A stretch of 62,672 nucleotides of DNA, filler included, from Perkinsus olseni (lineage: Eukaryota): assembly GCA_013115125.1 (NCBI GenBank). It is 12 parts of 12 records of this genome, joined end to end, with 100 filler letters (N's around TTAATTAATTAA, not from the genome) between each part and the next. Parts side by side here need not be neighbours in the genome. Positions count along the whole stretch, not along the records: positions 10,561 to 15,736 come from JABANN010001211.1; 11 more parts are not named here. One strand, 5' to 3'. The position numbers and the translations under genes were made by a program. Shown one piece after another: positions 5,184 to 61,500 of this stretch (the first letter of the stretch is position 1; every line of letters starts with the position of its first letter). The notes beneath the pieces are model-generated. The model did no database searches and was not told the DNA's origin. It saw only the letters and a program-made list of their open reading frames with translations.

Positions 5184-5283
5184 NNNNNNNNNNNNNNNNN
5201 NNNNNNNNNNNNNNNNNNNNNNNNNNNTTAATTAATTAANNNNNNNNNNNNNNNNNNNNNNNNNNNNNNNNNNNNNNNNNNNN
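5184..5283. other. Artificial contig linker N44-TTAATTAATTAA-N44; same linker at 10461, 15737, 21009, 26272, 31497, 36721, 41943, 47154, 52355, 57518
   Basis: Identical 100-nt spacer with stop codons in all six frames; intervening segments decrease monotonically in length. Confidence 0.98.
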
Positions 5284-5516
5284 GAGTATCGCTGCCTTGA
5301 TGCTCCCTTACGCGTGATGATGATGCTAGGGGCTGAGCTACTGAGTATCGCTGCCTTGATGCTCCCTTACGCGTGATGATGATGATGCCAGGGGCTGAGC
5401 TACTGAGTATCGCTGCCTTGATGCTCCCTTACGCGTGATGATGATGATGCCAGGGGCTGAGCTACTGAGTATCGCTGTTTTGATGCTACGCGTGATGATG
5501 ATGCCAGGGGCTGAGA
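5284..5516. repeat. Tandem repeat, ~59-62 bp unit, ~4 copies
   Basis: GAGTATCGCTGCCTTGATGCTCCCTTACGCG(TGA)n...GGGGCTGAGCTACT starts at 5284, 5343, 5405 and 5467. Confidence 0.9.
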
Positions 5517-9871: not shown

Positions 9872-11340
9872 GATTTATTATTCAATCGTCACGTATCATT
9901 GATGTATGCCTTCCAGCTCTAAGTGCGGCTGATTCGTTCAGTTAGCAGCCGACGGCAGTGGTCAAAAAGACCCTCCTAGTGCTTAGGCATGTGGCCTTCG
10001 AACTAGGTGTATTAGCCGATTATCACGCCGTTCGGGGATTCCTGTAGAGTTTAGTGTTAATCACTTTGTGTTGCCTCTGTCTTTCTTGAAGCTAGCCGCA
10101 CGAGGGGAAACAACCATTCTCGAAAGCGCTCGTTTGAAATTGTATGTTATTCGGATTCCACCATTCGTGGGAGGATGATGTATATTTGAGTTGTAGATTC
10201 AGGTCATACTCGAACTGCGTAGAGACCTCACCCGCCCTTAACTTCTCGTTGCTCTCACGTCCTTCCCCGCTCGACCAGACGTACCGTGTAAAACTTCCAT
10301 GTCGATCTGATACTTCCAACTCAATTATTATGCCCGGTACAGCGGTGGAGTCAGGGCGGCCTATTTATGTCCATACTATTCGTTTAAACCATTCAGAAGC
10401 CTATTTGGCGGATAGGGTTGCCGTTGCCGTAGCCTATATGGGGGTCGAGGATGATATCATNNNNNNNNNNNNNNNNNNNNNNNNNNNNNNNNNNNNNNNN
10501 NNNNTTAATTAATTAANNNNNNNNNNNNNNNNNNNNNNNNNNNNNNNNNNNNNNNNNNNNCTTTATCTTCAAGTTCATCACCTAGAACCTTTGTATACTT
10601 TGACGATCGTGATTAGACCAACGACTATGAGCTTTTGTCAACTTGCTGCTCAGCGTCATTACTGGGCAACCTTCAAAGTCTGCTGCACTGAAAAGAGCTC
10701 ATCCCCTCCGGCTCGGATTCGGCCAACTTCATCTCAAGGTACCCTCCAGAGCGTAGCATTAGTGGCGATGGGACTGGTATCGCATACGAACACCCAAAAT
10801 GTATCTGACGCCAGTATCTCATCAACTGAATGCCAACGTACGAGCTAGAAGTGACAGTTTTCTGCTATTTTCCGCCGCCTTATCTTCAAGTCGTCGGTGA
10901 TGGCCACCTTTACACTCCTTTTGGATTTTGGATATTGCATGATGAAGTCAGTAAAAGGTGACGTTAGCTCCGCCAATGACTTTTTAACTCTTGTCCACGT
11001 GAACGCTGATCTACAGCTAGTTGAGAAATCCCAATACCTTTCTCAGCTGTCCGACCGTTTCTGGAGGGGAAAAGAGGACCTCTGCCAGCTCAGACAATGT
11101 GCGATCTGCTAGTCGCCATCTTTTTGCGGATAGACAGCGGCAAGTACTCGATCTCCTGGACGGGTTTCCTGGAATCCTTCCGTTCAGGAAAGAGAACTCC
11201 TTGGCTTTCCATGACATTCACGGCCTCGACACTCGTCCTGGGTGGAGCCCCACACTAGAGCGCCATCTACGTAGGGAGCCACGAATCGATAATCTGAGCC
11301 TGGTCCTTGCCGCAGTAACTTAGTCAGACTATAGCTCCAC

Positions 11341-12067
11341 GGGTGTATTCCGATTCGTACATCGAAAACTCGTACACTATCACTTCGTACACGGCTCGCA
11401 CACTGAATTCTCGTTCAGTCATTGGATTCATACATCGCCATTTCGTACACTTGATACTCGTACACGTAATACTCGTTCATGTAGAAAGTCGTACACATAG
11501 AGTTTGTACACGTGAATCTCATACACTGACAACTCGTACACGAGCACGACTCGTACACTATGCTTGCTGAGTCGCATTTTTGGGCCGCGCGGTGGGTGCA
11601 ATGGCGGAGCGAAGGAAGTTATATTGTCTATAGGGAGCGAACTGTTCGCGCCATTCTGTGAGAAGAAGTCTATCAGGGTGACTGGTATGGTGGTTAAGGC
11701 AGCGGACTCTCGAAAATTTTTTAGGCAAGTCACGGAGCTGCTCCGCGACTTGCCTAAAAAATTTTCGCGGAGTGTACGAAATGACGGTGTACGACTTGAA
11801 ACTGGGCTTGTGTACGAAATGAGAGTGTGTGGAATCCTGGTATACGAGTTGAAAGTGTACGACTATTATGTGTACGGGTGTTATATGTACGGGTATTACG
11901 TATACGAGCACCATGTATACGAGTTTTATATGAGTTTTATATGTACGAATCTCTCGTGTATGACTACTCGGTGTACGAGTATTTCGTGTACGATTAGAAA
12001 GTGTATGAGTATTGGCGACATCAGTCGAAAATGAACGACTATTTGGTGTGCGAAACGTGAACATCCC
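11341..12067. mobile_element. Non-autonomous foldback-type DNA transposon (MITE) with 8-bp TSD
   Basis: AGCTCCAC at 11333-11340 and 12068-12075; termini GGGTGTATTC...GAACATCCC; oppositely oriented arrays of TCGTACAC / GTGTACGA at ~15-bp period. Confidence 0.8.
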
Positions 12068-13979
12068 AGCTCCACCAATGACTCGCGTACACCAATCCCA
12101 TCATGAGCTTGACGTGTAAGAAATATCGGTCCTTTTCATCTTCTGATATACCTTTCGCAACAGCTCCGGAGCAAATTCAGCCTTCGGCTGGCGAGGTTAC
12201 CAGACGGTGTGGCATTCCAGAAGCAAGGAACTCTGCGCCGTGCTCACCCGAACTATGCTCTCCGAGCTTTAGTAGAGTTATGACTCTGTGCCCTTACCCA
12301 GCTCTGAGGATCGTAGTCGACATCGGGTGCAACAACAAAGCTTCAGTTGCGTGAGTCAACGAACCGATTTCTCCGTAAGAAGACAGCGTTCGAAGCGGTC
12401 AGTGGCAGTTGAGAAACGGGTTATTTAGAGGCTTGTGCTTGCGGTAGCTGAGGAGTTCCGTACTCTACGAGAATTGCACCCTTCAGTCACATATACGGTC
12501 TACCATTCCGGTCCAGGAGTCATGAATCAGCTAGCTGATTCCCTCACTCGTGCCCTGGATCGTCCCTGTGATGGTACTGTCCCACTGCTGTCGACGATAC
12601 TCTCGTCGGTTCCTCGGATGGATTTTTCGGGCCCAAAATTGGTCGAAGAGGCAGTTGCTCAGGATGGGCAGTCTTCCTCAAATATATTTCTAGTGCACTC
12701 GTTAGATCTTGAAGTTGAGGATTCACTATTCCTTCCTTGTCCGATATTAGATCTTAGCCATAGTAAAGAATCTTGTGATAATTTCATGCCAATTTCTCTA
12801 TGCCATCCTAGGAAGGCGCAAGCTGATGCTACTACTGCGGCTGTGGGCGCATAACTAGCAATTAAGAAATTGGAGGATATGAGCAGGGATCTCACCGACA
12901 TTGGCACTATTGCTCTGGTAAGCGAAGATGTTGATTAGAGCTCGTTCCTTCAGCGGTTACTAGCGTACAAAGACGTCAAAGTTATCTACCGACTGGTGGC
13001 AGTGTTACGAGGTGTTACGCTTCTGGATTGCGTATTGTTGGTCTGAGATCGTCGTCAGGTTCGGACGGAGCATGGTGGCCCTTTCATTATAATTACGACT
13101 TCGATTTATGATTCGAAGATTACGACTTGGATGTCGTATTGAGCATACTTAAAGCCTGTGTGGCCGCGCGATGGTTAGACAGGACGAGGATATTCATGCC
13201 TCGTGGCAGCATCAGTATCGCCATAACTGCTGCCAGCAGGTGTTAAGAAACAAATACGCGCCGAGACGACTTTCTGACCGGGGCTGAAGTCTGGAACTAA
13301 ACTTCCCGCATTGTGTTCCATAGGGCTGACACGTAGGCTGTAGGGTGATTCACTGCGATGTGAGTGACTCTCAGCAGGGAACCAGCACCAGGAAGGAATG
13401 GATGTTTGGCCATAAAAATTGGGCCACACAGGCTCAATATCATAGAAAATGCGGCGCCGGAGTTTGATACAATCTCGAGGTGCGCCACAGTGTGTCAGAG
13501 TCACAACCCGAAAGAACCGCCAAGGAGACCAGCCAGGATTTTCTCGTGCTATCAAGATCCTGCTCGTTGATAAACATGAACGAAAGCCTATGGATCTCGT
13601 GTTCGATCTCGGCGGAAGGGCGATATCCTCCGGTGCTAGGCCGACCTCCTATGCATACGAAAGGATACGATGCATACGAGTACAATTATCGCCTTCTGCT
13701 ACGCTAAGGCCGACTTGGGTGATCCTTCAAAGAACGGTGGGCCAATTCGTTGGCATGCGCAAGTTCGGCTCACTTCTCCGTTTTCCAGTACATGTTGTCG
13801 TCAAGAAAGATGTTGCGTTCAAAACGGTGCATCATTCAGCAAGGGTCAGTGTCTTCTCCTTTTGCGCGTGCCACCTCTGGAAATCTAGCGTCGTGCCCTT
13901 TTGGAATCCTGGCGCCGACCGTTGTGGATGAAGCCGCTCTCCGCGAAAAGCTCTGCCAAACGGAAAACCTGGGTCAATT

Positions 13980-14185
13980 TGTAGCTGGCGCGGTGCCAGC
14001 TAGAGGTTGGCGCGCGTGCGGCGCGCGCGTGGAGGCTCAGGAGACGGTCACGGGTGACGTGACCGGCGGAGGGCGTCTCGCGGAGCGGAGAGATTGTGCG
14101 TAGCCATCTTGACTCGGGTCTTCCTAATGTCTGAGTTCACGTCGTCAATTGGGAGTGAAGCGGCTGAGGGGACCCGCTCACCACA
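13980..14185 (+). mobile_element. Solo LTR (206 bp) containing a spliced-leader-like sequence
   Basis: Starts TGTAG, ends CCACA; 5-bp TSD CAATT at 13975-13979 and 14186-14190; removing it restores the host integrase reading frame. Confidence 0.85.
14097..14118 (+). other. Perkinsus/dinoflagellate spliced-leader-like 22-mer
   Basis: TGCGTAGCCATCTTGACTCGGG versus the recalled Perkinsus SL ACCGTAGCCATCTTGGCTCAAG: 17/22 identical, 13 contiguous. Confidence 0.65.
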
Positions 14186-16040
14186 CAATTGGAGCGGTGG
14201 TACTTGGCCCGTTGGCTCGGGCCCTTCACGATCACGAAGGTTCCCAAAGCCTTTACGGTCGCTCACGGGACCTCGTTAGTTATCCTGACTTGCGGGAGCA
14301 CTGCCGCGCGTTTGTTCGCGATTGCCCTTCCTGCTCTGTCGGAAAAGTCACGGTTTCTGCCGCAGTGGAGTGCGGTCTGGCGGATCGTCCGGTGGTCCCC
14401 CGAGCTTCGGAGCCCTGGGAAAGTGTTCATATGGACATCGCCGGCCCGTATAAAAGCCAGGAATTGTATGTCACCACCCTGGTTGACAACTTTAGTGGCT
14501 ACCTTGTCACCAAAGTTTCCAAGTCCACTCCCACCGCCCATGTGACTTCTGCGCTGTTCCGGGAGGTGTTAGAGCGCTTCAACACTCTCCCGCGGACCGT
14601 CTATCACGATGGCGGGTCCCAGTTTTAAGCTGCTGAGTTCCTCGCGGCTATCCGCTGGGCACCCGCCGCCGTGTGCCGGTCCCCTGTGCATAGTTCGTGG
14701 GTCAACGGAAAGGTGGAGCGAGTACACCGCGTGCTTAACGAACGGCTCCGTTCGCACGTTTCCGGTTCTCTCACTTTCGCTGGCTTCAAGGAGGTTATCT
14801 CTCGCACCACGCAGATGTACAACACTTCTCCTGTGCGTCGTGGTGGGCTCAACCCACATAGTCTTGTTTTTACCTTCCCGGCCTGGCCATATCCTTCGGT
14901 TTCTTCGCGGTTTCGCCCCCCGCTCGCTTCGGCCGCCGATACCGCCGCACCTGTGGATCCTTCTCGGCCTTTGCGGTCTCTTCCTCTTCCTGGGGCCTAT
15001 TCAAGTGCCCCTTTTTCCGAGGAAATGTTTTCCGACACGAAACGGGTACTGATTCCGAGCCCCTACTTTTCCGAGTTTCCGAGAAACCCTACACCGATTG
15101 TGAATCAGTAATACCACACTTATCAAACTACAGTGGCCACCACACTCGAAGATACTCACAGTTTGCTGTTCAGCAGACTCGTTTACGGTAAAAAATACCA
15201 GACTGCCACTTACAACAACCGCTACCCTAAGAAATAAGACCGGCAATTTATTGGAGATAAATAATATCGCACAACTTCTAATTCTAATCATCTTCAACAT
15301 ATTCACTGCTCTTAAGCAAATGAGGCACCTCAGTCATTCTCTGATTCGACAACCTTCACTCCTTCAGCTCTCATCCTGCCGCACATAAGGCGATAATAAT
15401 CGGACTTGTGTAAGGCGTACTGTGTCTGGGCTCTTATCAGATCCAGTTTAGCTGCATGTATCTCCTCCAAAGCAGAATTCTCCCTTCGCCCTCGTTTTCG
15501 AGACTTCACTGACTCCCCCAATTCGCGGCTTGAACCTCGCACGCATTCTGATGAACTGGACGATGATGTACTCAAGACTTGGTCTGCAGGTTTCTTGGGC
15601 TCCTGATAAACGTCAAGGACCCCATCATCATCGTCCTGGATGAGCCCTTCAGTTTTGTCACCAACATTATCTTCGGCAACCTCTACTACTTGCCTGGGAC
15701 CATCGCCGCAGTCAGACTCCACATCCAAGCCTTGCGNNNNNNNNNNNNNNNNNNNNNNNNNNNNNNNNNNNNNNNNNNNNTTAATTAATTAANNNNNNNN
15801 NNNNNNNNNNNNNNNNNNNNNNNNNNNNNNNNNNNNGATGGTGAAAAAAGACTGCCGAAAAATAGAGTTGAAAATGACAGTGCAAGTGGTGCAAAAACAG
15901 GTGTTTAGAGAAACTCCGGTGAGGAAAAACGATTTACTCTTAGCCTGGAAGTCTCAGGACGCAACAAATGAAATGTAAAAAGCGCTCGCCCCGAATCTTG
16001 CGCTGCGGTTTTTCCCAAATGCGTTCAATGGAATTAGAAC

Positions 16041-44948: not shown

Positions 44949-46504
44949 TCACTCGGCAGCGCCCTCTCCCAACTCAAGTGCTTCAGGCGTTGTCGGCTCG
45001 GAGTCGATGGCTTTGTGAGGCGACTTCGACTGCAGGTAGGTGTAGGTAAGAAAACCGAGGACGCTGATACTGTAACCGATGAATTGTAGAGTGGATACTT
45101 TCTCTTGAAGCAGCAGGACGGATACCACTACGGGGAGGTTATTGCGGAAGATTCCGAGGAGCTTCATTGCTAGACCAGATGTGCAGTTGATGACGGCAAG
45201 AGTGAGGAGATTGACGGCCACGCCGAGAAGGCATGATACTGAAAAGGACAAAAATTGGGGTTTTCGACTGACTGCCTCTCCGGATTTTCAAGGATCGTCT
45301 TTGAGTCGCTAAGTTCAATCCTGGGAGCGCTCTTGCAATTCCGATCCGAATTTTCAACAGCGGAGGGAAGCCAAAGGGAACTCACGTGAAAGAAGCGCTA
45401 TAGTGAATGGTGGTTGATATGATACTGAGGGTAATGCTGCTGGTTCGAGGAGGAGGCCAAGACAGGCCTGGCAGAAGGCTGTGGCCATAGACATGTGGAG
45501 AAGGGAGTCGAAGGGAGAGAGTTTGTCGTCTGAGGGGACGGATCAGTCCAGATACAACGACACGTCCGAGCTGATGGTAACACCCAATGTCGATAAGGTT
45601 CTCAGTATACCGAGAATTTCAAGTTCTCGGAGTGAATTTCATTTCCACTCATTCTCATTTCCGCGAGTGGAAATGGAGTGTCTCCTTCTATGAATGGAAT
45701 GAAGGCTCTATGTGCGTTGCCAGTTCATTTCCGTCTACACGTCTTTCCCGAGGTACTGAGGCCCTGTTCGAATTGACGGGGAACCGCGGCGCCGTGAAAT
45801 TGAAGCCTTGACCTACCAGCCATTGAAGTCTGCAAGAGCACCAGCTTAGTCGCCTCTGAGATGTCAGCTGCGGTTTGCAAGGCGAAGCCCGTCCAGGAGA
45901 ACTTGAGTTCGCCTACAGACGCAACACACGTCCCGATGCAGATGAGTATAACGGCGATAACTGAGCCACAAGAAGGTATCTGAGCATTGGGAGAGGTACG
46001 GTTCGACTTCTTTCCAGATAAGTATCTTACACGCACTCGGAAGATTAGCATAACGATGAGGATATAAACAGGAGTCTCTGCTTTGAGCATTTGAGTGAAG
46101 GACACCGATAAATAGCGGTAGACGTTGTTGCCTGCTCCACTAGCGATCGCAGTGAGAACCCCGAGAGGGACGATACGCCGTAGCCAATACTTATTCGTTA
46201 CGCTCGTTGGAGTTGAGCAAATACCTGAGTCGGGGTCTACCACCGGTTGATGTTTTGGAGACGTCGCACCCGTCTTGACGGCCATCCTGGTGACGAGAGC
46301 GCACACCCACGTCCCGAGGCTGGACACTGTGATGGGGTAAGGGAAGGCCGTCTTGTTGTAGATGTGCGCGTTCAGCAGTATGAGGGCTGGCCCAGCCAAA
46401 CAGTATAGTGAACAATAGGCGATACAGCGCAGATTGACTGCTACTAGCGATCGCAGGCGGGACCATGCCCTCCGGCGACGGGCATTCAGTGCAGCTAAAT
46501 TCAT
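44949..46504 (-). CDS. TPT / nucleotide-sugar transporter family (DMT, SLC35-like), multi-exon
   Basis: ILLNAHIY..FPYPIT, NNVYRYLSVSFTQMLKAETP, GELKFSWTGF..Q...EATKLVLLQ, AVNLLTLAVINCTSGLAMKLLG..RN, QFIGYSISVLG. Confidence 0.88.
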
Positions 46505-47325
46505 CTGATGAAATCAAGGAGCCCCACCATAGCCTACCGACGGGCTATTGACGACGGTATGCTGATCAACTCAACTATCTTGCCAGAATGCTTAATAGAA
46601 AGACAAAGATGCCGCTGCGGCCACCTCAGTGGCCAACAACAGTGGCCACCTCAGAACAACTGAGTTTGCCGTTAACTGGAAACAGGACTGGTGCCGCCGG
46701 GGCTCAGATGCAAAGAATGCTAGTTAGTCACTTTCCGCGTGCTCAATAGATCTCTCTTGAGTTTCAAGACCGCTCCCGGGAACGTATTTTACACGTTGAA
46801 TTCAATCCTGGGAGCGCTCCTGAAATTCAGGAGCGGCTATTGAACACCCACATTGATTTTCATCCGATGAGCCCTGGCATTCCCTCATCGTCCGTGAGGG
46901 TCCACCGCGACATGTCGAAAATCCGGTGGGGATTTTCTGTGTAACCCAGTTGCACCTGTAAGTATCAGCCTTCCGAAGGCTCTCGGGGGTCGTCGTGGAT
47001 TTGGAGGGAAAAACCATATTTCTAAAGAAAGTAGCCATTTTCTAAAGAAGTTTCGCGCTCGCCCCCTCGCTTAGATTTTCTTCTCCTTCCTCGTTTTGGC
47101 TTGTGTTACGGCTTTGCCTTGGGTAACAGCCTTCACCCGTGATTTCGGCTCTCNNNNNNNNNNNNNNNNNNNNNNNNNNNNNNNNNNNNNNNNNNNNTTA
47201 ATTAATTAANNNNNNNNNNNNNNNNNNNNNNNNNNNNNNNNNNNNNNNNNNNNATACTAGCGCTAGCTGTGCAGCTGGTGTCCCAAAGCTGCCCCTTTGT
47301 GTCGAATGTCCCCACACGGCCGGCT

Positions 47326-50300
47326 TTACCGACGGTATGTGACTTCGTCCATACCTCCAGAGGATGCTGGCAGTTCCACCTCCCGACGGTGGGTGCTGGG
47401 GACGCTGCGGGCCGCGCGTCCAGCGTAAAGATCACTGAGTTCGTTGAACCGGTGTCCGACATGGCCCTTCACCCACCATAGGTAGGCTTGGTAGCCATCC
47501 GTGCCTTGGCCTATCCATCGTCGGATAAGGCCCGCCACTTCTCGGGTCAACTCAGTAGAAGCCCTGTCGCTATCGCGAAGGACGTTAGCTACCGATCTTA
47601 TTGCTGCTTGTGAGTCGCAGCAAAGATACGCAGTCTTGCGCGGATCACCTTGCATCCTTAGCTCCAGCGCCCACGACATGGCAGCCCATAGCCCCACGGC
47701 TTCACATTGCAGAATATTGGCATGAGGGCCTGTGTTGTAACAACGCCCCTCGTGCCCCGACTGGTGCCCGGATACAAGTCTGACGACTCCAGTGCCCGTT
47801 TTTGCCACGACGTTGCCCCGGTCAACGACGGAGCCGTCGCTGTAGAAGTAGTGCGCTGAATTATTCGGCCTCGGCGGCATACCAGAGGTCATTTCACAAT
47901 GCCAACCATGCAGTGGTTGGGCTTTGTGTGGATCATCCACGATGCGTGGTACCTCACGCCCCGAGCAGTCCTCTATTCCCCACTTGGAGAGCGTTGCCCG
48001 GATCCTCGTGGATAGGGCTCCCTGCGATCGGTGGAGGTGGTAATCAGCATATCGTACTCTAGCTTGCAGCCAAAGAGGCTCCGTTATCATAGCAAAGCAT
48101 CGCGATGCGAAAAGAGTCGGTGTAGATCTGCACAGCCCACACACTGATCGGAAGAATACCGCTTCTAGGCGAGAGCATCGCTTCCTGAACCATTCGTAGG
48201 AAGCGACCCCGCCCCAGAGTTCAATTCCGTATAACAGTATTGGCACCACGTGCGTCCGCCAAGCGCATAGTGCCACACCGGGCGATACGCCCCAGGATCT
48301 TCCAGACAGTCGCCGGATTATGGCTAGAGCTCGGAGAGCTTTGCCGAAAGCATAGTCCACATGGGTGCTCCAGCTCAGCGATGGCGTGAGCCAGAATCCC
48401 AACCATTTGATGTTACCTTTGATGCTGTCACTGACGAACTGAGTGTCCTGACCCTCAAGTTCGTCCTTGAGCAGCTCGGCTGTTAGGCTGCAGTCGGTCA
48501 GCGCCTCCGTTTTCTGTCTGTCAATCGACAGGTCCGCGTCTTCCGTCCATGCCGACAGGGTATCAACAGCCTGTCTGACACCCTCGGAGAGTCCGAGCAG
48601 GCCGAGTGCGACGATACGTATACAGAAATCATCAGCGTATATCGCGACCCGGATCGAGAAAGGCCCTCTGAGCTCACCGATTCTCTTTCCGACTCGCCAC
48701 GTCGATGCACAAAAGCAAACAGGCGAGATGATCCCACCTTGGGGGATTCCTGCCGCTCGATAGGTTTTTAGGCCGTCAAGGTGCACGTCTCCACCGTGTA
48801 AATACGACTCTATCAAAGCTCCCCACTGAGGGATCCCGGTGATCGCGGTGATCTCCGTTACAATGTAGCTGTGAGCGATCTTGTCGAAAGCCGAGGCGAC
48901 GTCGAAAGTGACGGTGATGGCGCGAGCCTCCCTATCCTGTTGCTGCTGGTGGTCGATTATCGACTGGACTGCAGTGACAGTGCTGCGGTGTGGGACGTAT
49001 CCATGGACGCATTCAGGGGGTATCCCTAGAGCCGACAGGAGTCTGCGCTTGAGCAGGAGCTCAAAATATTTGCCCAGGCAAGACCCCAGGGCCACGGGGC
49101 CGTTGGCTTTAAACAGTAGGCAAAGGTCGGACCGCTTGTAAATGGTAGGGTAATAAGTGAGCCTGAGGATCGAGTTGAAAACGTCCCCGATGGCGTCGCG
49201 GAACCAGGGTACTTTCTGGCACGCATACCTCACATGCTCGTAGAAGATACCGTCATGGCCGCAAGACTTCCGAGTCTTGAGGCTGCGTCCAGCAGTCTCG
49301 ACTTCCTCATCCGTCAGCGGACCTCCCAAGGCTGCCAAGTTCCCACTGTAGTCACCAGAAAGGTGGTTAAACCTCCCATGACCGAGTGCCGGGGGCTGCT
49401 GCCTTAGGCCGAAGAAATGGTCGAGGATCTCAGCTTTGTCGTACGTGGCCGTGGCCGGAGTACGTGTTTTGAATCGTCTGTGGACCCCTGTTTCGTCCAT
49501 GGAGCTGAGTTCTCTCCCCAGGCGGTCCAGTTTAGCTTGCTTGATGCCGTTGAAATACGCTCGTTTTGTGCGGCGTACAGCTTCCCTCCCATCGGTGGAG
49601 TCAGCCCCTGTTGAGCGATGGCGATTGGTGGAACGAACCAGCTTCCGGGCCCTATTGTACTCGCGCCGGAGTCCATCCAGATTCTTATTCCACCAGACAG
49701 GCTTCTTCAAGCCGGCGGATTGGTCTCTGCGAGTCGCCAGCGGGGTGGACCGTTTGATTGCGTTGGTCAGTCTATCAGAGATGGCAGATGCCATCTCGTC
49801 TAGTTCTGCTGTTGTGCTCGCCAACCCGAGCTTGATGGGAGCTCTACTCAGAGTTTCTGAGAAAGTTTCCCAATTAGTACGGGAAGGGTACCTCTTGGGA
49901 GAAGATGCCGGCTTAGAGGCGAGCTTTCGGTTGCTACACGGTAGTGTAACCCTGAGGCAGACATGGTCCCCACACGTCGGAGCAAAACCAAAGCAGCAGT
50001 CTGGAGCCCGTTTACAGGCCAAGAGGTCGATGTACGATGCTCCGAGAGAGCTGGTGTAAGTTGGGACGGGAGGCTTAAACACCTCAAAGCCTTCTTGCAG
50101 AATAAACTCCTCAAAAGGGCGTCCTCGGGCGACCCGGATGTCGTTCGTAGGGAGGGAGCGGGCCGACCAGAGATATGAGTGGGAGTTTGTATCCCCGCCG
50201 ACCACAGTCACGCAGTTGCCGCCGCTCAGTTCAGCGAGATGCCTGCAGACGATATTACTATCCTGCAGCTTATCTGCGTAGAAAGAGATAAGGCGTAGTG

Positions 50301-50652
50301 GCTCTAGCACCCCATCTTGGTCGCAGAGACCGACATCGACGGAGACCACATCAGGTTTTGTAATGGTAGATAGAATACATGCGGCTCGTGGAGCCAGTAT
50401 AACCGCACGCGACCATTCCCTAGCCCCGGGAAGGGCATCAGCGTTACACTCGGCTTTAATGACGATCAGATCGCGGAAAGTGTTTCCGATACGATTCGGA
50501 GGTTCTTGGACTAGATATAGAGTGGTCACTCCACCATTGAGAGGGGTAGTCTCGTTGGCAAAGAAATCTTCAAATACTCCCCAGCTGCGGTTGGAGTTGA
50601 AGGATGCAATTCTACAGGAGGGCAGTGGACCGGCTACACCCGCAGGGAGCAT
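47326..50652 (-). CDS. LINE ORF2: APE endonuclease, reverse transcriptase, RNase H (1108 aa)
   Basis: LVQEP, GGDTNSHSYLW, SYIDL, GDH (APE); FDVASAFDKI, GIPQGGIISP, YADD, KWLG (RT); YSDGS, CEAVG, CDSQAA, WVKGH..NELSD (RNase H). Confidence 0.95.
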   Translation of the reverse strand: MLPAGVAGPLPSCRIASFNSNRSWGVFEDFFANETTPLNGGVTTLYLVQEPPNRIGNTFRDLIVIKAECNADALPGAREWSRAVILAPRAACILSTITKPDVVSVDVGLCDQDGVLEPLRLISFYADKLQDSNIVCRHLAELSGGNCVTVVGGDTNSHSYLWSARSLPTNDIRVARGRPFEEFILQEGFEVFKPPVPTYTSSLGASYIDLLACKRAPDCCFGFAPTCGDHVCLRVTLPCSNRKLASKPASSPKRYPSRTNWETFSETLSRAPIKLGLASTTAELDEMASAISDRLTNAIKRSTPLATRRDQSAGLKKPVWWNKNLDGLRREYNRARKLVRSTNRHRSTGADSTDGREAVRRTKRAYFNGIKQAKLDRLGRELSSMDETGVHRRFKTRTPATATYDKAEILDHFFGLRQQPPALGHGRFNHLSGDYSGNLAALGGPLTDEEVETAGRSLKTRKSCGHDGIFYEHVRYACQKVPWFRDAIGDVFNSILRLTYYPTIYKRSDLCLLFKANGPVALGSCLGKYFELLLKRRLLSALGIPPECVHGYVPHRSTVTAVQSIIDHQQQQDREARAITVTFDVASAFDKIAHSYIVTEITAITGIPQWGALIESYLHGGDVHLDGLKTYRAAGIPQGGIISPVCFCASTWRVGKRIGELRGPFSIRVAIYADDFCIRIVALGLLGLSEGVRQAVDTLSAWTEDADLSIDRQKTEALTDCSLTAELLKDELEGQDTQFVSDSIKGNIKWLGFWLTPSLSWSTHVDYAFGKALRALAIIRRLSGRSWGVSPGVALCAWRTHVVPILLYGIELWGGVASYEWFRKRCSRLEAVFFRSVCGLCRSTPTLFASRCFAMITEPLWLQARVRYADYHLHRSQGALSTRIRATLSKWGIEDCSGREVPRIVDDPHKAQPLHGWHCEMTSGMPPRPNNSAHYFYSDGSVVDRGNVVAKTGTGVVRLVSGHQSGHEGRCYNTGPHANILQCEAVGLWAAMSWALELRMQGDPRKTAYLCCDSQAAIRSVANVLRDSDRASTELTREVAGLIRRWIGQGTDGYQAYLWWVKGHVGHRFNELSDLYAGRAARSVPSTHRREVELPASSGGMDEVTYRR

Positions 50653-52244
50653 TATTCAGATCTCCCGTCGTCCAAAGCGACGGGAGAGAGAGCATCAACG
50701 GCCATGTTCATGGCCGCGCTGTCAGGCTGGTCAGCAGTTGGGGATGCATTCCCAGTTCTCACGGGATCAGCCCCCGGTGGATCACCGATTCTGTGGTAGA
50801 TTGGTTTACAACAGTGCTCTATTGCACTGTGAGCACCATTACAGTTAGAGCAGGAACGTAGTCCCTTATAGTATTTCGGGTGAGGACAGGCCTCTAGGCT
50901 ATGGCTGCCTCCGCAACGGACACATCGCGCTGGTGCAGAACAAGCGGCGTTCCCGCCTATTGGGTGAAAGCGGCCACATTTGTAGCAGAGAGAGCCCTTG
51001 CTACTCATTTTAGCCACCTTACAGCTCGCCAGTCCCAAAAATAATCGACCCTCTGCCGCGAATCTCGCCAAGGCAGAGCTGGGCCCACGGACAACCGCGA
51101 AGGCCTGCGTCTGCTTGATCACGGTGATCCTGGAAGTGTCTATTCCGTTTTTCCTTCCCAGGTCGTTCAGCAGGAATTGCCCGGAATACGAACTGAGTTC
51201 GGACGCAACCCGCGGGAATAGAATCTTAATAGTAGATGTACTTCTCAGAATCTCCTTGCAGATGAGGTTGGGGTCTCTGCCGATCATGCCCACCGCAGCG
51301 GTCCACTGTCGTCTATCAGGGAGGAGCAGACCCAGCCCTCCGCCAACGGCGAAGGTGCGTGTAACCCGCACACCGTTCAATAGCCCGGATGCGGCAGTGC
51401 GAACCGTCTCTAACTCATCTGCCGAGAGGTTCTCCCAGCGCCCAGTAGGCCCAACCTTTCCTCTGAGAGTGACACACAGGATGGTTGACTCGCTTACAGG
51501 TGGACCAGGTGGCCTAGTAGTGGGGTTGCTGACCGGAGTCGGCGTAGTAGTCGGATGGTTTGCGGCGCGTTGTCCGCGTTGTCGGCCCCTCCTACGTGGC
51601 GCAGCTAGTCTCCAGCCAGCGGTTTCAGTAGATTCCGCGTCCGATGTGACGGCAGTCGTGGGAACCACGGGTCGACCAGTCGTGGATGAGACCCTTCCAG
51701 TTCCTCCTGCCGCAGAGGCGATAGCGGGGAGGCTGGGAATGGGCTCTTCAGGGACGTCATTTCTTGAAGATGACGAATTAATCGAGTGGGCCGAGACGCA
51801 GTCAGACTCCTGTATGCTGCGAAAAATCTCGGAGTCCACCGATGCTCTACGCTTTTTACTACCCGATGATGCTACTGCCCTACGAGTCTCATCTATCTCA
51901 CTTTTAATTTCTACCATTTTCTTTCTCTCATTAGCTAATTCTAAGTATATGTGCAATAGTTCACAATCTTTCTTACTCTGAGTCTCTAGACTCTCTAACC
52001 AACGACCGCGGAGCTCAGAAATTACCTCCTTGAGCTTACCTGCTGCCGCCTTACTCCATACAGATTTTCTTGACGCAAAGGTATCCGTGGCGGCTACTAT
52101 CCATTCCAATAGTGCAGAAGTACTACTCGTTATATCTACTGATATATCTATAGGGGGACGCCTTGTTCTCCGTTCCTCCGCGCTTCCATCTCCAGCTTCA
52201 TCGACGATGGACTGGGAGGTGCGAGGGGGTGGAGACGCCGGCAT
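50652..52244 (-). CDS. LINE ORF1 gag-like nucleic-acid chaperone (530 aa)
   Basis: N-terminal coiled coil; three knuckles CYKCGRFH...C, CVRCGGSHSLEAC, CSNCNGAH...C. Confidence 0.9.
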   Translation of the reverse strand: MPASPPPRTSQSIVDEAGDGSAEERRTRRPPIDISVDITSSTSALLEWIVAATDTFASRKSVWSKAAAGKLKEVISELRGRWLESLETQSKKDCELLHIYLELANERKKMVEIKSEIDETRRAVASSGSKKRRASVDSEIFRSIQESDCVSAHSINSSSSRNDVPEEPIPSLPAIASAAGGTGRVSSTTGRPVVPTTAVTSDAESTETAGWRLAAPRRRGRQRGQRAANHPTTTPTPVSNPTTRPPGPPVSESTILCVTLRGKVGPTGRWENLSADELETVRTAASGLLNGVRVTRTFAVGGGLGLLLPDRRQWTAAVGMIGRDPNLICKEILRSTSTIKILFPRVASELSSYSGQFLLNDLGRKNGIDTSRITVIKQTQAFAVVRGPSSALARFAAEGRLFLGLASCKVAKMSSKGSLCYKCGRFHPIGGNAACSAPARCVRCGGSHSLEACPHPKYYKGLRSCSNCNGAHSAIEHCCKPIYHRIGDPPGADPVRTGNASPTADQPDSAAMNMAVDALSPVALDDGRSE

Positions 52245-52480
52245 TAAATGAGGGTTGTCGAGTCGTAAGTGCGCAAAGGGGTAGTAGGGTCGCTGTGTGT
52301 CTGGGGTCCAGTTGTTGTCGTTGGTGATGTTCTCGTTGTGGAGGTAGTCGAAGTNNNNNNNNNNNNNNNNNNNNNNNNNNNNNNNNNNNNNNNNNNNNTT
52401 AATTAATTAANNNNNNNNNNNNNNNNNNNNNNNNNNNNNNNNNNNNNNNNNNNNAGGGTATACAGTGCAGTATTCGTATA

Positions 52481-55050: not shown

Positions 55051-57060
55051 CTATTTGCGAGTGAGCCGGCGTATAACGATCCACTGCCTCGGATCGTGGT
55101 CGGTTTCAATGTGGAGGGTACTATTGCGAGCACCTGGAGACTTATCCAACCACTCTAAGGCCTGCTCATCAGTCAGTATAAATTTCACCGTCTGCTGTGC
55201 TGGCAGCACGGCAGCACCCAAAAAGATGGGCTGATTGTCTGCACTGAGCCGGCCAGGTGGTTTCACTACCACTCTGATATGACAAGTCGCCTTGAATGCT
55301 GAGACTATTTTTAGTCCCACTTCTCCATTTTCCAGCCATTTCGCTGTACCGTTCATAGAGGTGCTCGCCTTGGTTTTTTTAGAGAGAGGAAAACTCTCCG
55401 GCAACTTTGGAACAGGTGCCTCGTGACTATCGACCGCCTGCTGAATGACGAGTACACTCGATGAGTCCAGGTTGCTAGCACACCTTCCGTTTCTTCGAGG
55501 TTCTCCGAATAGCATCGAGAGTGCCGTCCTGTGTAACTGCCAAAGGCGATTCTGGTGTCGATGATGTGATGAAGGAAGGCCTGAGAGTCATCACAGAGCC
55601 CGTCGACGATTCTATAAAGTTGCGTGTCAGTTCGATTACACTGTCTTTTTAACGCCCGCAGCGGCTTGAGACGTTCGACCGCCGTTGGGGCTCTCAAGTA
55701 CCACAGTAGGCGAAACGGAGTAGGCAGATGTCTCGTCCTCCTGGCTCCGTAGCAACGAAAGCTGAGTTTCGAGCTTGTTGATTTTCTCGAATGCGACCGC
55801 CTGAGGCACTGACGTGTAGGATGAGACCACAAATGAATCACGCCAGCCAACGAGCGAGCGTGCCTACTGAGCAAACCCTACTCTAGTTTTCTGAAGGTCT
55901 TTCATCATGTCGCTCGTTTCATTCTCCGAGCGCTTCCGCTCCGCCTAATACACGACAATATGTTGTAGTGAATAATATTCACTGAATATGTGACGCGATC
56001 AAACCTCCACCAAGTGGAGTCCACTTGTGTTTACCTTCTCAGATTCCACTTCTTTCTCGAGACGAGCAATTTGCTTTTCCATGTTAGCCTACCACAAATG
56101 CAAGATGGTTAAGGTGGTTCACCTCTGCAGAAGTGCGAGTGAAACTTAACACATATCCACACCTTCTCCTCCTGTAACTCCTCCAAGGCTCCCTCTGCCT
56201 CCTCTGCCCTCTTGTCTGCTTCGGCCTGCGAAAGAAAAACATCAACTAGCTACAGAGAAGTTGAACATCCTCAAACGAGTTTACCTTCTGCGCCGTCAGC
56301 CTCTGCAAGGCTTCCTGTACCTCCTCAACCTTTTTGTTTGCTTCAGCCTGCGAAAGAAAAACATCAACTAGCTACGGAGAAGTTGAACATCCTCAAACGA
56401 GTTTACCTTCTCCACCTTCAGGCCCTGCAAGGCTCCCTCTGCTTCCTCTGCCCTCTTGTCTGCTTCAGCCTGCGAAAGAAAAACATCAACTAGCTACGGA
56501 GAAGTTGAACATCCTCAAACGAGTTTACCTTCTCCACCTTCAGGCCCTGCAAGGCTCCCTCTGCTTCCTCTGCCCTCTTGTCTGCTTCAGCCTGCGAAAG
56601 AAAAACATCAACTAGCTACTAAAAATTCAAGGTACGGAGCCTAAGTTCCGCAGGGTACTGTTTACCTTTTGAGCTGCGAGCTCTTCCTTGAGTGCCTCTG
56701 TGGTGGCCAACAAACCCTGGCTTCTAGTAGTAAGGTCAGCGATTTGCTTCTCTGCATCAGCCTAACAAAAGCCCATAATGCGCTGTTATAATGGATAGTG
56801 AGTCACTATTAGTCATTATCGTGTTTCTCTTCACCTTTCGGTTCGACAGTAGTTGCTTGGCTACGTCTACGGTAGCTGATGAATCACCCTGGGCAGTCTC
56901 ACAGCGTTGACGTAAATCGTCGAGCTCTGCCCTGTCCTGCGCCCGCTCTTCGGCCTAATGAGTGAGTTGAGGTAGTCACACGATGATGTCACCGCTGACG
57001 ATGCAAGAAACCTACGAATCTCTGGTTCATGCGACTGCGCCGCTTAGACCTTGTTGTCAT
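55051..57060 (-). CDS. Multi-exon coiled-coil protein upstream of the MULE transposase
   Basis: ATG at 57060 (MTTRSKRRSR), many short exons including four 63-nt repeat exons, final ~154-codon segment ending at 55051. Confidence 0.55.
56163..56618. repeat. 122-bp tandem exon+intron repeat, ~4 copies
   Basis: 63-nt exons at 56163-56225, 56285-56347, 56407-56469, 56529-56591 separated by 59-nt GT-AG introns. Confidence 0.9.
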
Positions 57061-57348: not shown

Positions 57349-57517
57349 ACTTATATACGATAAGGTAAACACGTGGCGCACTCACGGCCTACACTTATAT
57401 GTGATAAGGTAAACACGTGGCGCACTCACGGCCTACACTTATATGTGATAAGGTAAACACATGGCACACTCACGGCCTACACTTATATGTGATAAGGTAA
57501 ACACGTGGCGCACTCAC
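57349..57517. repeat. 44-bp tandem repeat, ~4 copies, running into the contig end
   Basis: ACTTATATGTGATAAGGTAAACACGTGGCGCACTCACGGCCTAC. Confidence 0.92.
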
Positions 57518-58523: not shown

Positions 58524-61500
58524 TCAGAAATTCATGAAGCGATTTTGCGCCGCCGCATCTAGTGTCAGACTTTTCGCTAATGCGGGTTGCGCTTTTCTAG
58601 GACGACCAGGCTTACGAGTGTTCCTCTGTATCGGCATCGAAAATCTGTCCGCCTGGTTGAGCATTCCTCGCCGGGCTCCTACTCCAATGCAATGAAGGCA
58701 CTGCTTGTTTTTCAGGAAGCTTGGACAAGTACAATTAAAGTGCCTCCAATTTGTGGATCCCGCCGGTATGGTCACCATATAGATCTTACTCAGCATAGCG
58801 GCGATAGATACGAAATTTGGATGCTCGAATCTCCCATAGAGAGTGCCAAGGAATTTGTGCACATTCTCCAGAGACAGGTAGGATGGAGCGGCACCTCGGG
58901 ACCGGACAAACACATATGTCCCTTGTGGCAGCTCTACCATCCTCATGGCCTCATTCTCCGCCCACTTCGCGGCGGATACGAAGAGAGATTTTGATGCCCC
59001 GAGATCATCGATATCTTCGAACTGCCTATCTCCGGAACCACTAGCATAATTGAGAGCCTCACTGTATCCCGGAACCACCTTGCTCTGCACTAAGGTAAGA
59101 AATGTGCCCAAGGGCAGCTTCTCTCGTAGAGTTTTTATTTTCAGCTGGTTATTCATGGATTCCAACCCATTATTAGTGGATGGCAGCCGGGGTGCAAAAC
59201 CCTCCCACCAGGTGTTGTAGGGAGGATTTTGCACCCAGCTTTCCCTGATATACTTCAAGAGCTCCGGGTGTCGTGGCTCGTGTTGAGCTGCGAACAACCG
59301 GAACATTTCGAAGAAGGCTTTTTGGGAAGTAGCAAGCTGCACGTAAGAGAGATCACGCATGATGATATTCTCATCCCGCTCCTCCATTTTCAGGCCCCTC
59401 ATGAACGTCTCAACATTCTTCTTCATATGGTACCAGCACATGGCCCTCCCGGCAGCTGGGAAGACTTGCCCCGCAGNNNNNNNNNNNNNNNNNNNNNNNN
59501 NNNNNNNNNNNNNNNNNNNNNNNNNNNNNNNNNNNNNNNNNNNNNNNNNNNNNNNNNNNNNNNNNNNNNNNNATGTCCTTGAGAGTGTTACTGTCTTTGC
59601 TGTGTGTCCTTGAGACGGTCCTTGCTGTGTGTCCTTGAGAGTGTTACGGTCCTTGCTGTGTGTCCTTGAGAGTGTTACTGTCTTTACTGTGTGTCCTTGA
59701 GAGTGTTACGGTCCTTGCTGTGTGTCCTTGAGAGTGTTACTGTCTTTACTGTGTGTCCTTGAGAGTGTTACGGTCCTTGCTGTGTGTCCTTGAGAGTGTT
59801 ACTGTCTTTGCTGTGTGTCCTTGAGACGGTCCTTGCTGTGTGTCCTTGAGAGTGTTACGGTCCTTGCTGTGTGTCCTTGAGAGTGTTACTGTCTTTACTG
59901 TGTGTCCTTGAGAGTGTTACGGTCCTTGCTGTGTGTCCTTGAGAGTGTTACTGTCTTTACTGTGTGTCCTTGAGAGTGTTACGGTCCTTGCTGTGTGTCC
60001 TTGAGAGTGTTACTGTCTTTGCTGTGTGTCCTTGAGAACGTAGAACGTAACCTGTCCCCGTGACACCCGTGTGATAACCACTTGAGACTTACGACAAATG
60101 CTTTGTCAGGTTCTTGATCGCCAGGAAGCTGCGAATGCTCCTCCGTCATGGATATGAGGTCGCTCATGGTAATCACCATACTTCCTCCATTTGTGGCCTT
60201 CTTGACTCGTGCGAGGTAATTCTTCACCTATCCAGTAAGAGCAGTATCGAGAGAGTGACTCATATTCAACCTACCTGGCGCTTGTCTTTCGGTCTATCTT
60301 CCTGTTGGATTTTCCCTTTGTTGATCCTTCTCAATATTTTGTCCCATATTGTTGGTAGGTCCACTACACCTTCCCCTACTTTACGCTCAATAAACTCCTT
60401 GACTTCCTCAGCAAGACCTCTCTTCTTGGCATCCTCGTCATGGAGATGGGTTCCATCATTGGAAAACATAACGACCCTCGAAGAGGTGGTCTCATAATGG
60501 AGGTAAATTTGATGCCCCACGGGGTTCCCTCCAGCCATCACGGACGTTGTAGACTCTTCTCTATGGTTGGCCGGCTTACCGCAATCGCGGCAGTAGTAAT
60601 ACCGCTTGAATCCATACTTCTTCGTATAATTCGTCCTGAGACATATCAGGCGAGCAGATGATGTACCTGCGATCTGCGAGATTACCTCTGCAACCCGTAT
60701 GAGTGGGTTTCCAACCACGCATCAGCATCGTCTTCATTGTCGAACACTTTCTCTCTGTTCCAGGCGATAGCGTCACCGCGTCCACGCTTGACGGCTCCGT
60801 GTTCTCCCTCTCCAACCGATTCGGCACTGCTGTCATCCTCATCGGCAGCAGCGTGGTCTTGCCCTGCCGGTGGTAACAGCAGCTCATTGACCTCGTTTGT
60901 AGGGATTCGCCCTTGCGAGAGGAGCCGAGCGATGTCGTGGAGGATCTGGTGAGCAATATTCCGAGGTACGCAGTAATGGTGAGATGCACTTTCAGGCCCG
61001 GCTTTTACCTCTCCCGCGTCCTGGCGCGCTGCCTCGGCAGTGGATGATACCGACTCACCCCGAGTGGGACGGCCTGATGGACTCTTTTGCGAGTACGGCA
61101 TAGTTGTACCTTTAGCTTACCACCTCGCGAAGCATCCATTGGAAGCATTTCAGGATCCAACAGCATTTCGAGCTCCTCCTCTGTGAGTGATGAAAGGTAC
61201 CTGATTCCTTCGTGGATAGCGATGGAGGACTGGTGAACGTAAGTAAGTACTTGAGTATCTCGTCTTGGTCACTCCCATCCATGACTACCATCTCGCCGCA
61301 GCGACGGCCGGAAAACCCTTCGTTCATATCGTTGCATATCATCGGATTTTGATCAATCTTATTGGTATTCTGTGGAGGTTGCCGAGATGACGAGCTCGGA
61401 ATCGAAGGTAATACCACAATCTCCGTTCCGCCACTGCGTGCATCAGAATTGTCGGAAAACTTGTCGTCAATCGGGTCTTCTATATCAGCGGGCAACGGCC

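Follow-up and report, generated by a model that had tools for sequence, protein, structure and literature searches.

How does a stretch resembling the spliced leader (SL) of Perkinsus mRNAs come to lie inside a short repeat that has the ends of a long terminal repeat (LTR), and what might it do there? We address this question for a 206-bp unit at positions 13980-14185 (+ strand) of a 62,672-nt stretch of Perkinsus olseni DNA, referred to here as the window. The window is composed of 12 contigs (5055-5183 bp), arranged from the longest to the shortest and joined by runs of N around TTAATTAATTAA (e.g. 5184-5283, 10461-10560 and 15737-15836, with eight more), and adjacent contigs are not genomic neighbours. 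The unit lies on the contig spanning 10561-15736, so that its true context extends over about 5.2 kb. The reading that we favour, with a probability of about 60%, is that the unit represents a solo LTR belonging to a small retroelement family with dispersed copies, and that its SL was captured by reverse transcription of a trans-spliced element RNA.

The unit reads TGTAG...CCACA from end to end, with TG at 13980-13981 and CA at 14184-14185, and its termini form a short imperfect inverted repeat (TGTAG at the start, TGTGG as the reverse complement of the end). The five letters CAATT lie immediately to its left (13975-13979) and occur again at 14186-14190, adjoining the unit end. A target-site duplication of 4-6 bp is what a solo LTR should carry on its two sides, and a 5-mer such as CAATT would match by chance in 1 of 1024 cases. 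An initial annotation of this DNA had described a 206-bp TG...CA unit with a CAATT duplication and an SL-like 22-mer located 117 nt in, all of which is read directly from the window sequence. The window contains no second copy of the 206-bp unit, and no tRNA gene was found in it.

The SL-like 22-mer, TGCGTAGCCATCTTGACTCGGG, occupies 14097-14118 (+ strand) and is preceded by 117 nt of the unit (13980-14096, + strand). This upstream segment is U3-like and has a G+C content of 0.718. It contains palindromes – a hairpin at 13982-14002, and also GGTCACG...CGTGACC – and has a fold z-score of -2.88, with 3 of 200 shuffles folding equally well; a promoter role for it is putative. The 67 nt located 3' of the SL (14119-14185, + strand) are R/U5-like. 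It is the position of the SL within the unit that suggests a U3/R boundary at this point.

Comparison with the published leader shows that 14097-14118 is identical to P. marinus SL1 (PmaSL1, 22 nt) at 17 of 22 positions, with SL positions 3-15 forming a contiguous run of 13. The SL that the initial annotation had named is PmaSL1 as published (PMC3101222; PMC9399869), and recomputation of its comparison returned the same 17/22 identity and the same 13 contiguous bases, with internal transitions (mismatches G>A, A>G and A>G). Its premise that the host group has such an SL is also sound: the Perkinsus leader is in the literature, and the coding sequence on the contig is Perkinsus-like. A central TCTT sets the Perkinsus SL apart from that of dinoflagellates, which has TTTT (PMC9399869), and PmaSL exon probes hybridise in two species, P. 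marinus and P. chesapeaki. The window contains no further relict of the full SL at <=3 mismatches, and the SL 15-mer has 2 matches in the window against 2.13 expected.

Additional copies of the unit are present in public DNA sequencing data. Eight sequencing runs, from two studies of one organism, contain the stretch or part of it and are available as contigs, and those of the DNA runs X1, X3 and X7 were placed on 13600-14600 at 80% likeness (26, 22 and 25 contigs, respectively). None of the eight is recorded as RNA, and a presumed RNA run, X9, yielded 0 contigs at this likeness, a result that has no bearing on expression. Loose ends fall exactly at 13980 in three contigs of X1 and in two of X3, and to the left of this point the agreement is 0.61 in X1 and 0.67 in X3, about the level of unrelated sequences. 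One contig leaves the unit exactly at 14185. X7 contigs 17 and 18 start at 13980, and in this run the unit is covered and most of the left flank is uncovered. In X1 and X3 the contigs over the unit add up to ~3-5 times the depth of the flanks, and the summed depth is also higher in X7, although overlapping contigs add to this sum and it does not represent a copy number. The 206-bp unit is a dispersed repeat with exact ends at 13980 and 14185 and with unrelated flanks: several copies with the same ends lie in unrelated places, as contigs of X1, X3 and X7 show, and this is a further property expected of a solo LTR. The reading as an LTR, drawn from the ends, the duplication and the copies, is well supported; the assignment to the LTR class, the capture by reverse transcription and the placement of the SL at the start of R are what these observations suggest.

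No joint corresponding to an empty-site allele was found among the X1, X3 and X7 contigs over 13600-14600. Sequence-pattern scans of metagenome, genome and viral collections returned no other family members, and the viral and genome collections gave 0 matches with two patterns. Neither a complete element with paired LTRs nor a primer-binding site or polypurine tract was found in the window or in these collections, and this counts against the favoured reading. In the left flank, 13838-13905 has a small rise in summed depth with a loose end at 13885 (X1 and X3), and is a short stretch repeated elsewhere.

The other copies are closer to the SL than the copy in the window is. They differ from it within the 22-mer at 14098 (G>C; two contigs each in X1 and X3, one in X7), at 14112 (A>G; 2 contigs in each of the three runs), at 14116 (G>A; 2 contigs in X3) and at 14117 (G>A; 2 contigs in X1 and 3 in X3). 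With C, G, A and A at these four positions the match to the SL rises to 21/22, and the best copies differ from the SL at nucleotide 1 alone, where they have T and not A. The forms seen among copies range from 17/22 in the window through 19/22 and 20/22 up to 21/22; the contig of another copy carries CGTAGCCATCTTGGCTCAAG, and loose ends in X7 carry CGTAGCCATCTTGGCTCAAGTCTCA and AAGTCTCAGTCTT, one X7 loose end having 20 nt identical to the SL. The initial annotation had proposed that other copies be searched for a closer SL at the same offset, and the 21/22 form is precisely that. All four internal mismatches of the window copy are replaced by SL letters in other copies, which confirms that the SL-like stretch is real.

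Across the 93 positions 14023-14115, an X7 contig departs from the window at 12 letters and by 3 gaps, and X7 appears to contain a diverged lineage of the unit in which, judging from its loose end, the SL stretch is intact. The SL exon of the window copy is a decayed one, with 4 of its 22 positions changed relative to other copies, and the differences listed elsewhere in the unit are much sparser. Decay confined so strongly to the SL stretch is not predicted by plain neutral decay, and this counts against a reading of capture followed by decay.

The sequence immediately following the SL bears on where it came from. In the window the SL is followed by TCTTCC, and in other copies by TCTCAG and then by TATTCC or TCTTCC, such that removal of one hexamer (TCTCAG), located between the SL and the AG that follows, turns the X7 form into that of the window subfamily. 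Slippage between TCT repeats, or duplication of 6 nt, would account for this difference just as well. The SL RNA genes of P. marinus have a T tract at their end and give an RNA of 80-83 nt, and the real P. marinus SL RNA reads CTCAAG and then GTARATATCAG, according to the 3' RACE primers in Table 1 of PMC3101222. In an SL RNA gene a GT donor and conserved intron lie right after the SL; here TC occupies this place in the window and in the other copies, and 14119-14185 contains no T run of >=4. The initial annotation had suggested comparing the LTR with SL RNA introns, and this gave no similarity above shuffles: aligned with the window copy, the two intron primers scored no better than shuffled sequences, 58 of 300 and 278 of 300 of which score as well. 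The segment from the SL to the unit end folds no better than shuffles (z = 0.34). The window has no match in Rfam at the gathering score, and Rfam may hold no Perkinsus SL model. By eye, the part 3' of the SL resembles the 'SL-like' primers that Zhang et al. used, but for the window copy this likeness was rejected, as it is not above shuffles; what is left as a lead is the TCTCAGT common to these primers and to other copies.

The unit thus contains a DNA-encoded SL exon without an intron, and this is the content of a spliced RNA and not of an SL RNA gene. It also departs from a relict SL of the kind that heads a retrocopy and is followed by host coding sequence. The unit spans 117 nt before the SL and 67 nt after it, and no host gene was found inside the 206-bp unit after the SL.

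Immediately to the right of the unit lies a piece of another retroelement. A 5'-truncated integrase fragment extends from 14209 to 15111 (+ strand) and matches the Pfam families Integrase_H2C2 and rve, which correspond to the zinc-binding and core domains, with an in-frame stop at 14626-14628. Its identity to two polyproteins of Perkinsus olseni is 73% and 70%, and its alignment covers residues 1029-1172 of one 1374-aa protein (P0027), in which the domain order is protease, reverse transcriptase, DUF7047 and integrase; approximately 1000 residues of upstream polyprotein are therefore missing 5' of the fragment. Other copies of the integrase element in X1, X3 and X7 diverge to the left of 14210, and the 30 letters with which they continue there are absent from the window. 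No Pfam family was found in the left flank or in the rest of the contig. The LTR sits in a broken retroelement neighbourhood.

Three other explanations have to be weighed against a solo LTR with a captured leader. Chance is one of them, and for the single copy in the window an SL likeness by chance is only moderately unlikely: Markov simulations of the window produced a site with <=5 mismatches in 15 of 300 cases, and many windows were scanned. A site with <=5 mismatches that also has a run of >=13 arose in just 1 of 300 simulations, however, and the conversion of the four internal differences to SL letters in other copies, on a contig whose coding sequence is Perkinsus-like, makes a chance match extremely improbable, provided that the contigs of those copies do not stem from some unrelated sequence. 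A different proposal concerns the identity of the unit, which could be the 5' LTR of an internally deleted integrase element, or some other short dispersed repeat. The integrase frame runs in the same direction as the SL, its homology begins only 24 nt past the unit, and the integrase-element copies part from the window precisely at 14210, as expected of a deletion joint. But CAATT on both sides fits insertion at this very spot, no second LTR was found in the ~500 nt after the expected end of pol, and the junction contigs at 14144-14239 have depths of 313 and 266, approximately those of the flanks (336-379), which indicates that the 24 nt past the unit are not common to further copies. We consider such a deleted element quite unlikely. 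The duplication, the flank-like depth at the junction and the lack of a second LTR past the end of pol lead us to favour insertion of a solo LTR at CAATT.

The third explanation derives the unit from an SL RNA gene or pseudogene – an exon with a degenerate intron – that became a repeat, without passage through a spliced RNA. The distance from the SL start to the unit end is 89 nt, near the 80-83 nt of the SL RNA. There is also a P. marinus 'L2-like' primer, CTCAAG-GTCTCAGT, with GT directly after the SL as a possible splice donor, and the TCTCAGT after the SL is common to this primer and to other copies of the unit, as far as the available text of PMC3101222 describes it; P. marinus may therefore have a related family that resembles the SL RNA gene more closely. 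In the copies seen here, however, the SL is followed by TC and not GT, neither real intron is similar above shuffles, and the T tract and a fold better than shuffles are both lacking. The mobile unit moreover has 117 nt in front of the SL, TG...CA ends and a 5-bp duplication, which retroposition of a small RNA would not yield. An origin from an SL RNA gene is accordingly one to which we give little credence.

We therefore return to capture from a spliced RNA, which is favoured by the position of the SL after 117 nt of the unit, the missing intron, the several dispersed copies that all bear the SL, and the fact that the X7 lineage has it too. In this scheme an element RNA would have received the SL by trans-splicing, and reverse transcriptase would have copied the SL-headed 5' end into minus-strand strong-stop DNA. 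One illegitimate strand transfer, which is a rare event with an unmatched 22-nt tail and is assumed in this scheme, would then have fixed the SL at the junction of U3 with the remainder of the LTR; thereafter both LTRs of each daughter copy would carry the SL while the family kept transposing. The initial annotation had listed an SL captured from reverse-transcribed trans-spliced RNA as its alternative. That alternative is now the favoured reading and has gained the intron-less SL exon, with the capture event itself probable.

This scheme departs from what is familiar in LTR elements at one point. During their replication the 5' end of the genomic RNA is the first part to be copied, giving strong-stop DNA, and comes to adjoin U3 in both LTRs, so that the R region of retroviruses and LTR elements has the same position as the SL has here. 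R is normally element-templated, and to our knowledge a host-donated leader is not part of the known scheme. Other retroelements have a biology that is tied to the host SL system, as that of the 206-bp unit is. SLACS, CZAR, CRE and NeSL-1 are site-specific non-LTR elements that insert into SL RNA genes, and trypanosomatid retroposons, in the portion of their description that was available, have a Pr77 internal promoter and unspliced RNA. We know of none among SLACS, CZAR, CRE, NeSL-1 and the Pr77 retroposons that carries an SL exon in a terminal repeat.

DNA-encoded SLs as such have been reported before, in dinoflagellates and in Perkinsus. Dinoflagellate genomes contain SLs that arose via reverse transcription of trans-spliced RNA (PMC3229502; PMC5585692, both in part), and the relict SLs of retroposed genes, or 'recycled cDNAs', were described by Slamovits and Keeling 2008 (as related in the accessible part of PMC3229502). 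These are similar to the SL described here in that an SL exon is present as DNA derived from reverse-transcribed trans-spliced RNA, with AG acceptors available for a further round. They differ in their location: in these excerpts the dinoflagellate relicts lie upstream of retrocopies of host genes, whereas the SL here is inside the terminal repeat of a retroelement, where 117 nt of the element precede it, and unlike the relicts of host genes it spreads along with the element.

Unpublished data on numerous encoded 22-nt SLs are referred to by Joseph et al. 2010, and Zhang et al. 2011 (PMC3101222) reported >100 P. marinus genomic PmaSL1/PmaSL2 sequences without a recognisable intron, which are left unexplained in the available part of that paper. 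The same text describes these intron-less copies as mostly starting with T and as having variable downstream regions and tandem-repeat arrays. Like the SL of the LTR, they have no intron and mostly start with T; in contrast, they are in tandem arrays and are cast there as non-functional SL RNA genes, and the flanks of the 13980-14185 family are dispersed and unrelated, a difference that weighs against the favoured reading. Mobile elements, TG...CA ends, target duplications, relics and retroposition are not mentioned in the part of PMC3101222 available. That the intron-less P. marinus loci belong to the same family as the 206-bp unit is a lead and not a result, the comparison being by description and with a partial text.

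The initial annotation had left open whether an LTR with an SL is undescribed. Intron-less genomic SLs are already in print, so that this part is not new, and the LTR context was not found in print in the texts available. The literature on spliced leaders together with LTRs or retrotransposons, on dinoflagellates and on Perkinsus, in which few subscription journals were covered and some papers in part, yielded no description of an SL inside an LTR. Nor is there a link between an SL and an LTR in the accessible portions of PMC12014239, PMC3706591, PMC9911081, PMC7245778, PMC5890265 and PMC5776459. What seems to be new here is a relict leader inside a retroelement's own repeat; relict leaders as such are already known.

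What the encoded leader might do for the element can be considered apart from its origin. It could be a built-in leader, the main idea of the initial annotation, such that transcription of the element would start at SL base 1 and the resulting RNAs would mimic trans-spliced mRNAs, which is compatible with an origin by capture. The SL does follow 117 nt of 72% G+C, palindrome-rich sequence that is a candidate promoter, and it is kept at 21/22 in several copies, with 20 nt identical in the diverged X7 lineage. Nucleotide 1 is T in all copies seen, however, versus A in the mRNA leader. In other SL systems the SL RNA donates a cap or nucleotide modification, and an encoded leader would lack what the real SL RNA donates. 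Furthermore, the SL-like loci of P. marinus gave no clear 3' RACE or RNA blot product (Zhang et al., PMC3101222, in the part available). From the sequence alone, a built-in leader seems unlikely, although conceivable.

The element might instead use the host SL as its R repeat, a tentative proposal that we put forward as a doubtful one. In transcripts passing through the 5' LTR, the terminal AG of the encoded SL, or else the following AG (that of TCTCAG), would act as the acceptor for trans-splicing, and an SL-headed 5' end would be rebuilt whatever the start site. At the first strand transfer the strong-stop DNA would pair with the SL encoded by the 3' LTR, and each new copy would get a freshly donated SL. 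Such a cycle would explain the intact 20-nt SL beside the diverged X7 contig, the two subfamilies that differ by a hexamer between the SL and the next AG, and the many intron-less SL copies in Perkinsus genomes. The intact X7 SL and the hexamer difference, both read from contigs, would lean that way, with no proof. A further possible role for the encoded SL, by analogy, is as a core promoter motif, as was proposed for relict leaders by Song et al. 2017 (PMC5585692, in part).

The many DNA copies of the SL in Perkinsus and dinoflagellate genomes are taken as the footprint of reverse-transcribed mature RNAs, although where the reverse transcriptase comes from and how the copies re-integrate are not known, according to the accessible text of PMC5585692. 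An SL-bearing LTR family, if true, would mean that retroelement RNAs are themselves trans-spliced and copied with their leader, and would help to explain at least some of the >100 SL-like loci of P. marinus. If the leader were also the R repeat or the head of the transcript, this would be a new form of retroelement dependence on a host RNA-processing step. LTRs that carry an SL can also mislead SL-based annotation of gene ends and SL-primed PCR in these parasites.

A scan of metagenomes with the SL plus GTCT returned six loci, none of them a family member. Two of them, L002 and L005, have the sequence GGCTCAGG within a gene array of bacterial type and were set aside as chance matches. The other four are G+C-rich with a T-starting SL and have none of the LTR flanks, and were rejected as members of the family. 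They carry a Perkinsus-type leader (central TCTT) on contigs of 58-63% G+C, at L001:16-37, L003:1133-1154, L004:294-315 and L006:85-106 (-), preceded by TCC in the first three and by CAC in L006. The L001 leader is at the contig start after a G run, and that of L003 is between two open frames. These four loci possibly represent other leader-using alveolates with encoded or spliced leaders.

Several other features were noted in the window. On the contig that carries the unit, 11400-12100 has long stop-free frames on both strands with Y/V/H-rich translations, and looks like a degenerate short-period repeat and not a gene. A further retroelement is located at 47326-50655 (- strand), where an open frame of 1109 aa with Exo_endo_phos_2 and RVT_1 domains corresponds to a LINE-like non-LTR retroelement that looks intact; the 566-aa frame upstream of it (50652-52352, - strand) matches no Pfam family. 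An exon of the triose-phosphate-transporter family lies at 45725-46513 (- strand), on another contig than the unit, and shares 81% identity with two P. olseni proteins, the matches after these being at <=47%; together with the integrase fragment it places the coding sequence closest to P. olseni. Tandem arrays are present at 59543-60088 (period 31 nt), 56161-56619 (period 122 nt), 57349-57517 (period 44 nt) and 5315-5500 (period 62 nt).
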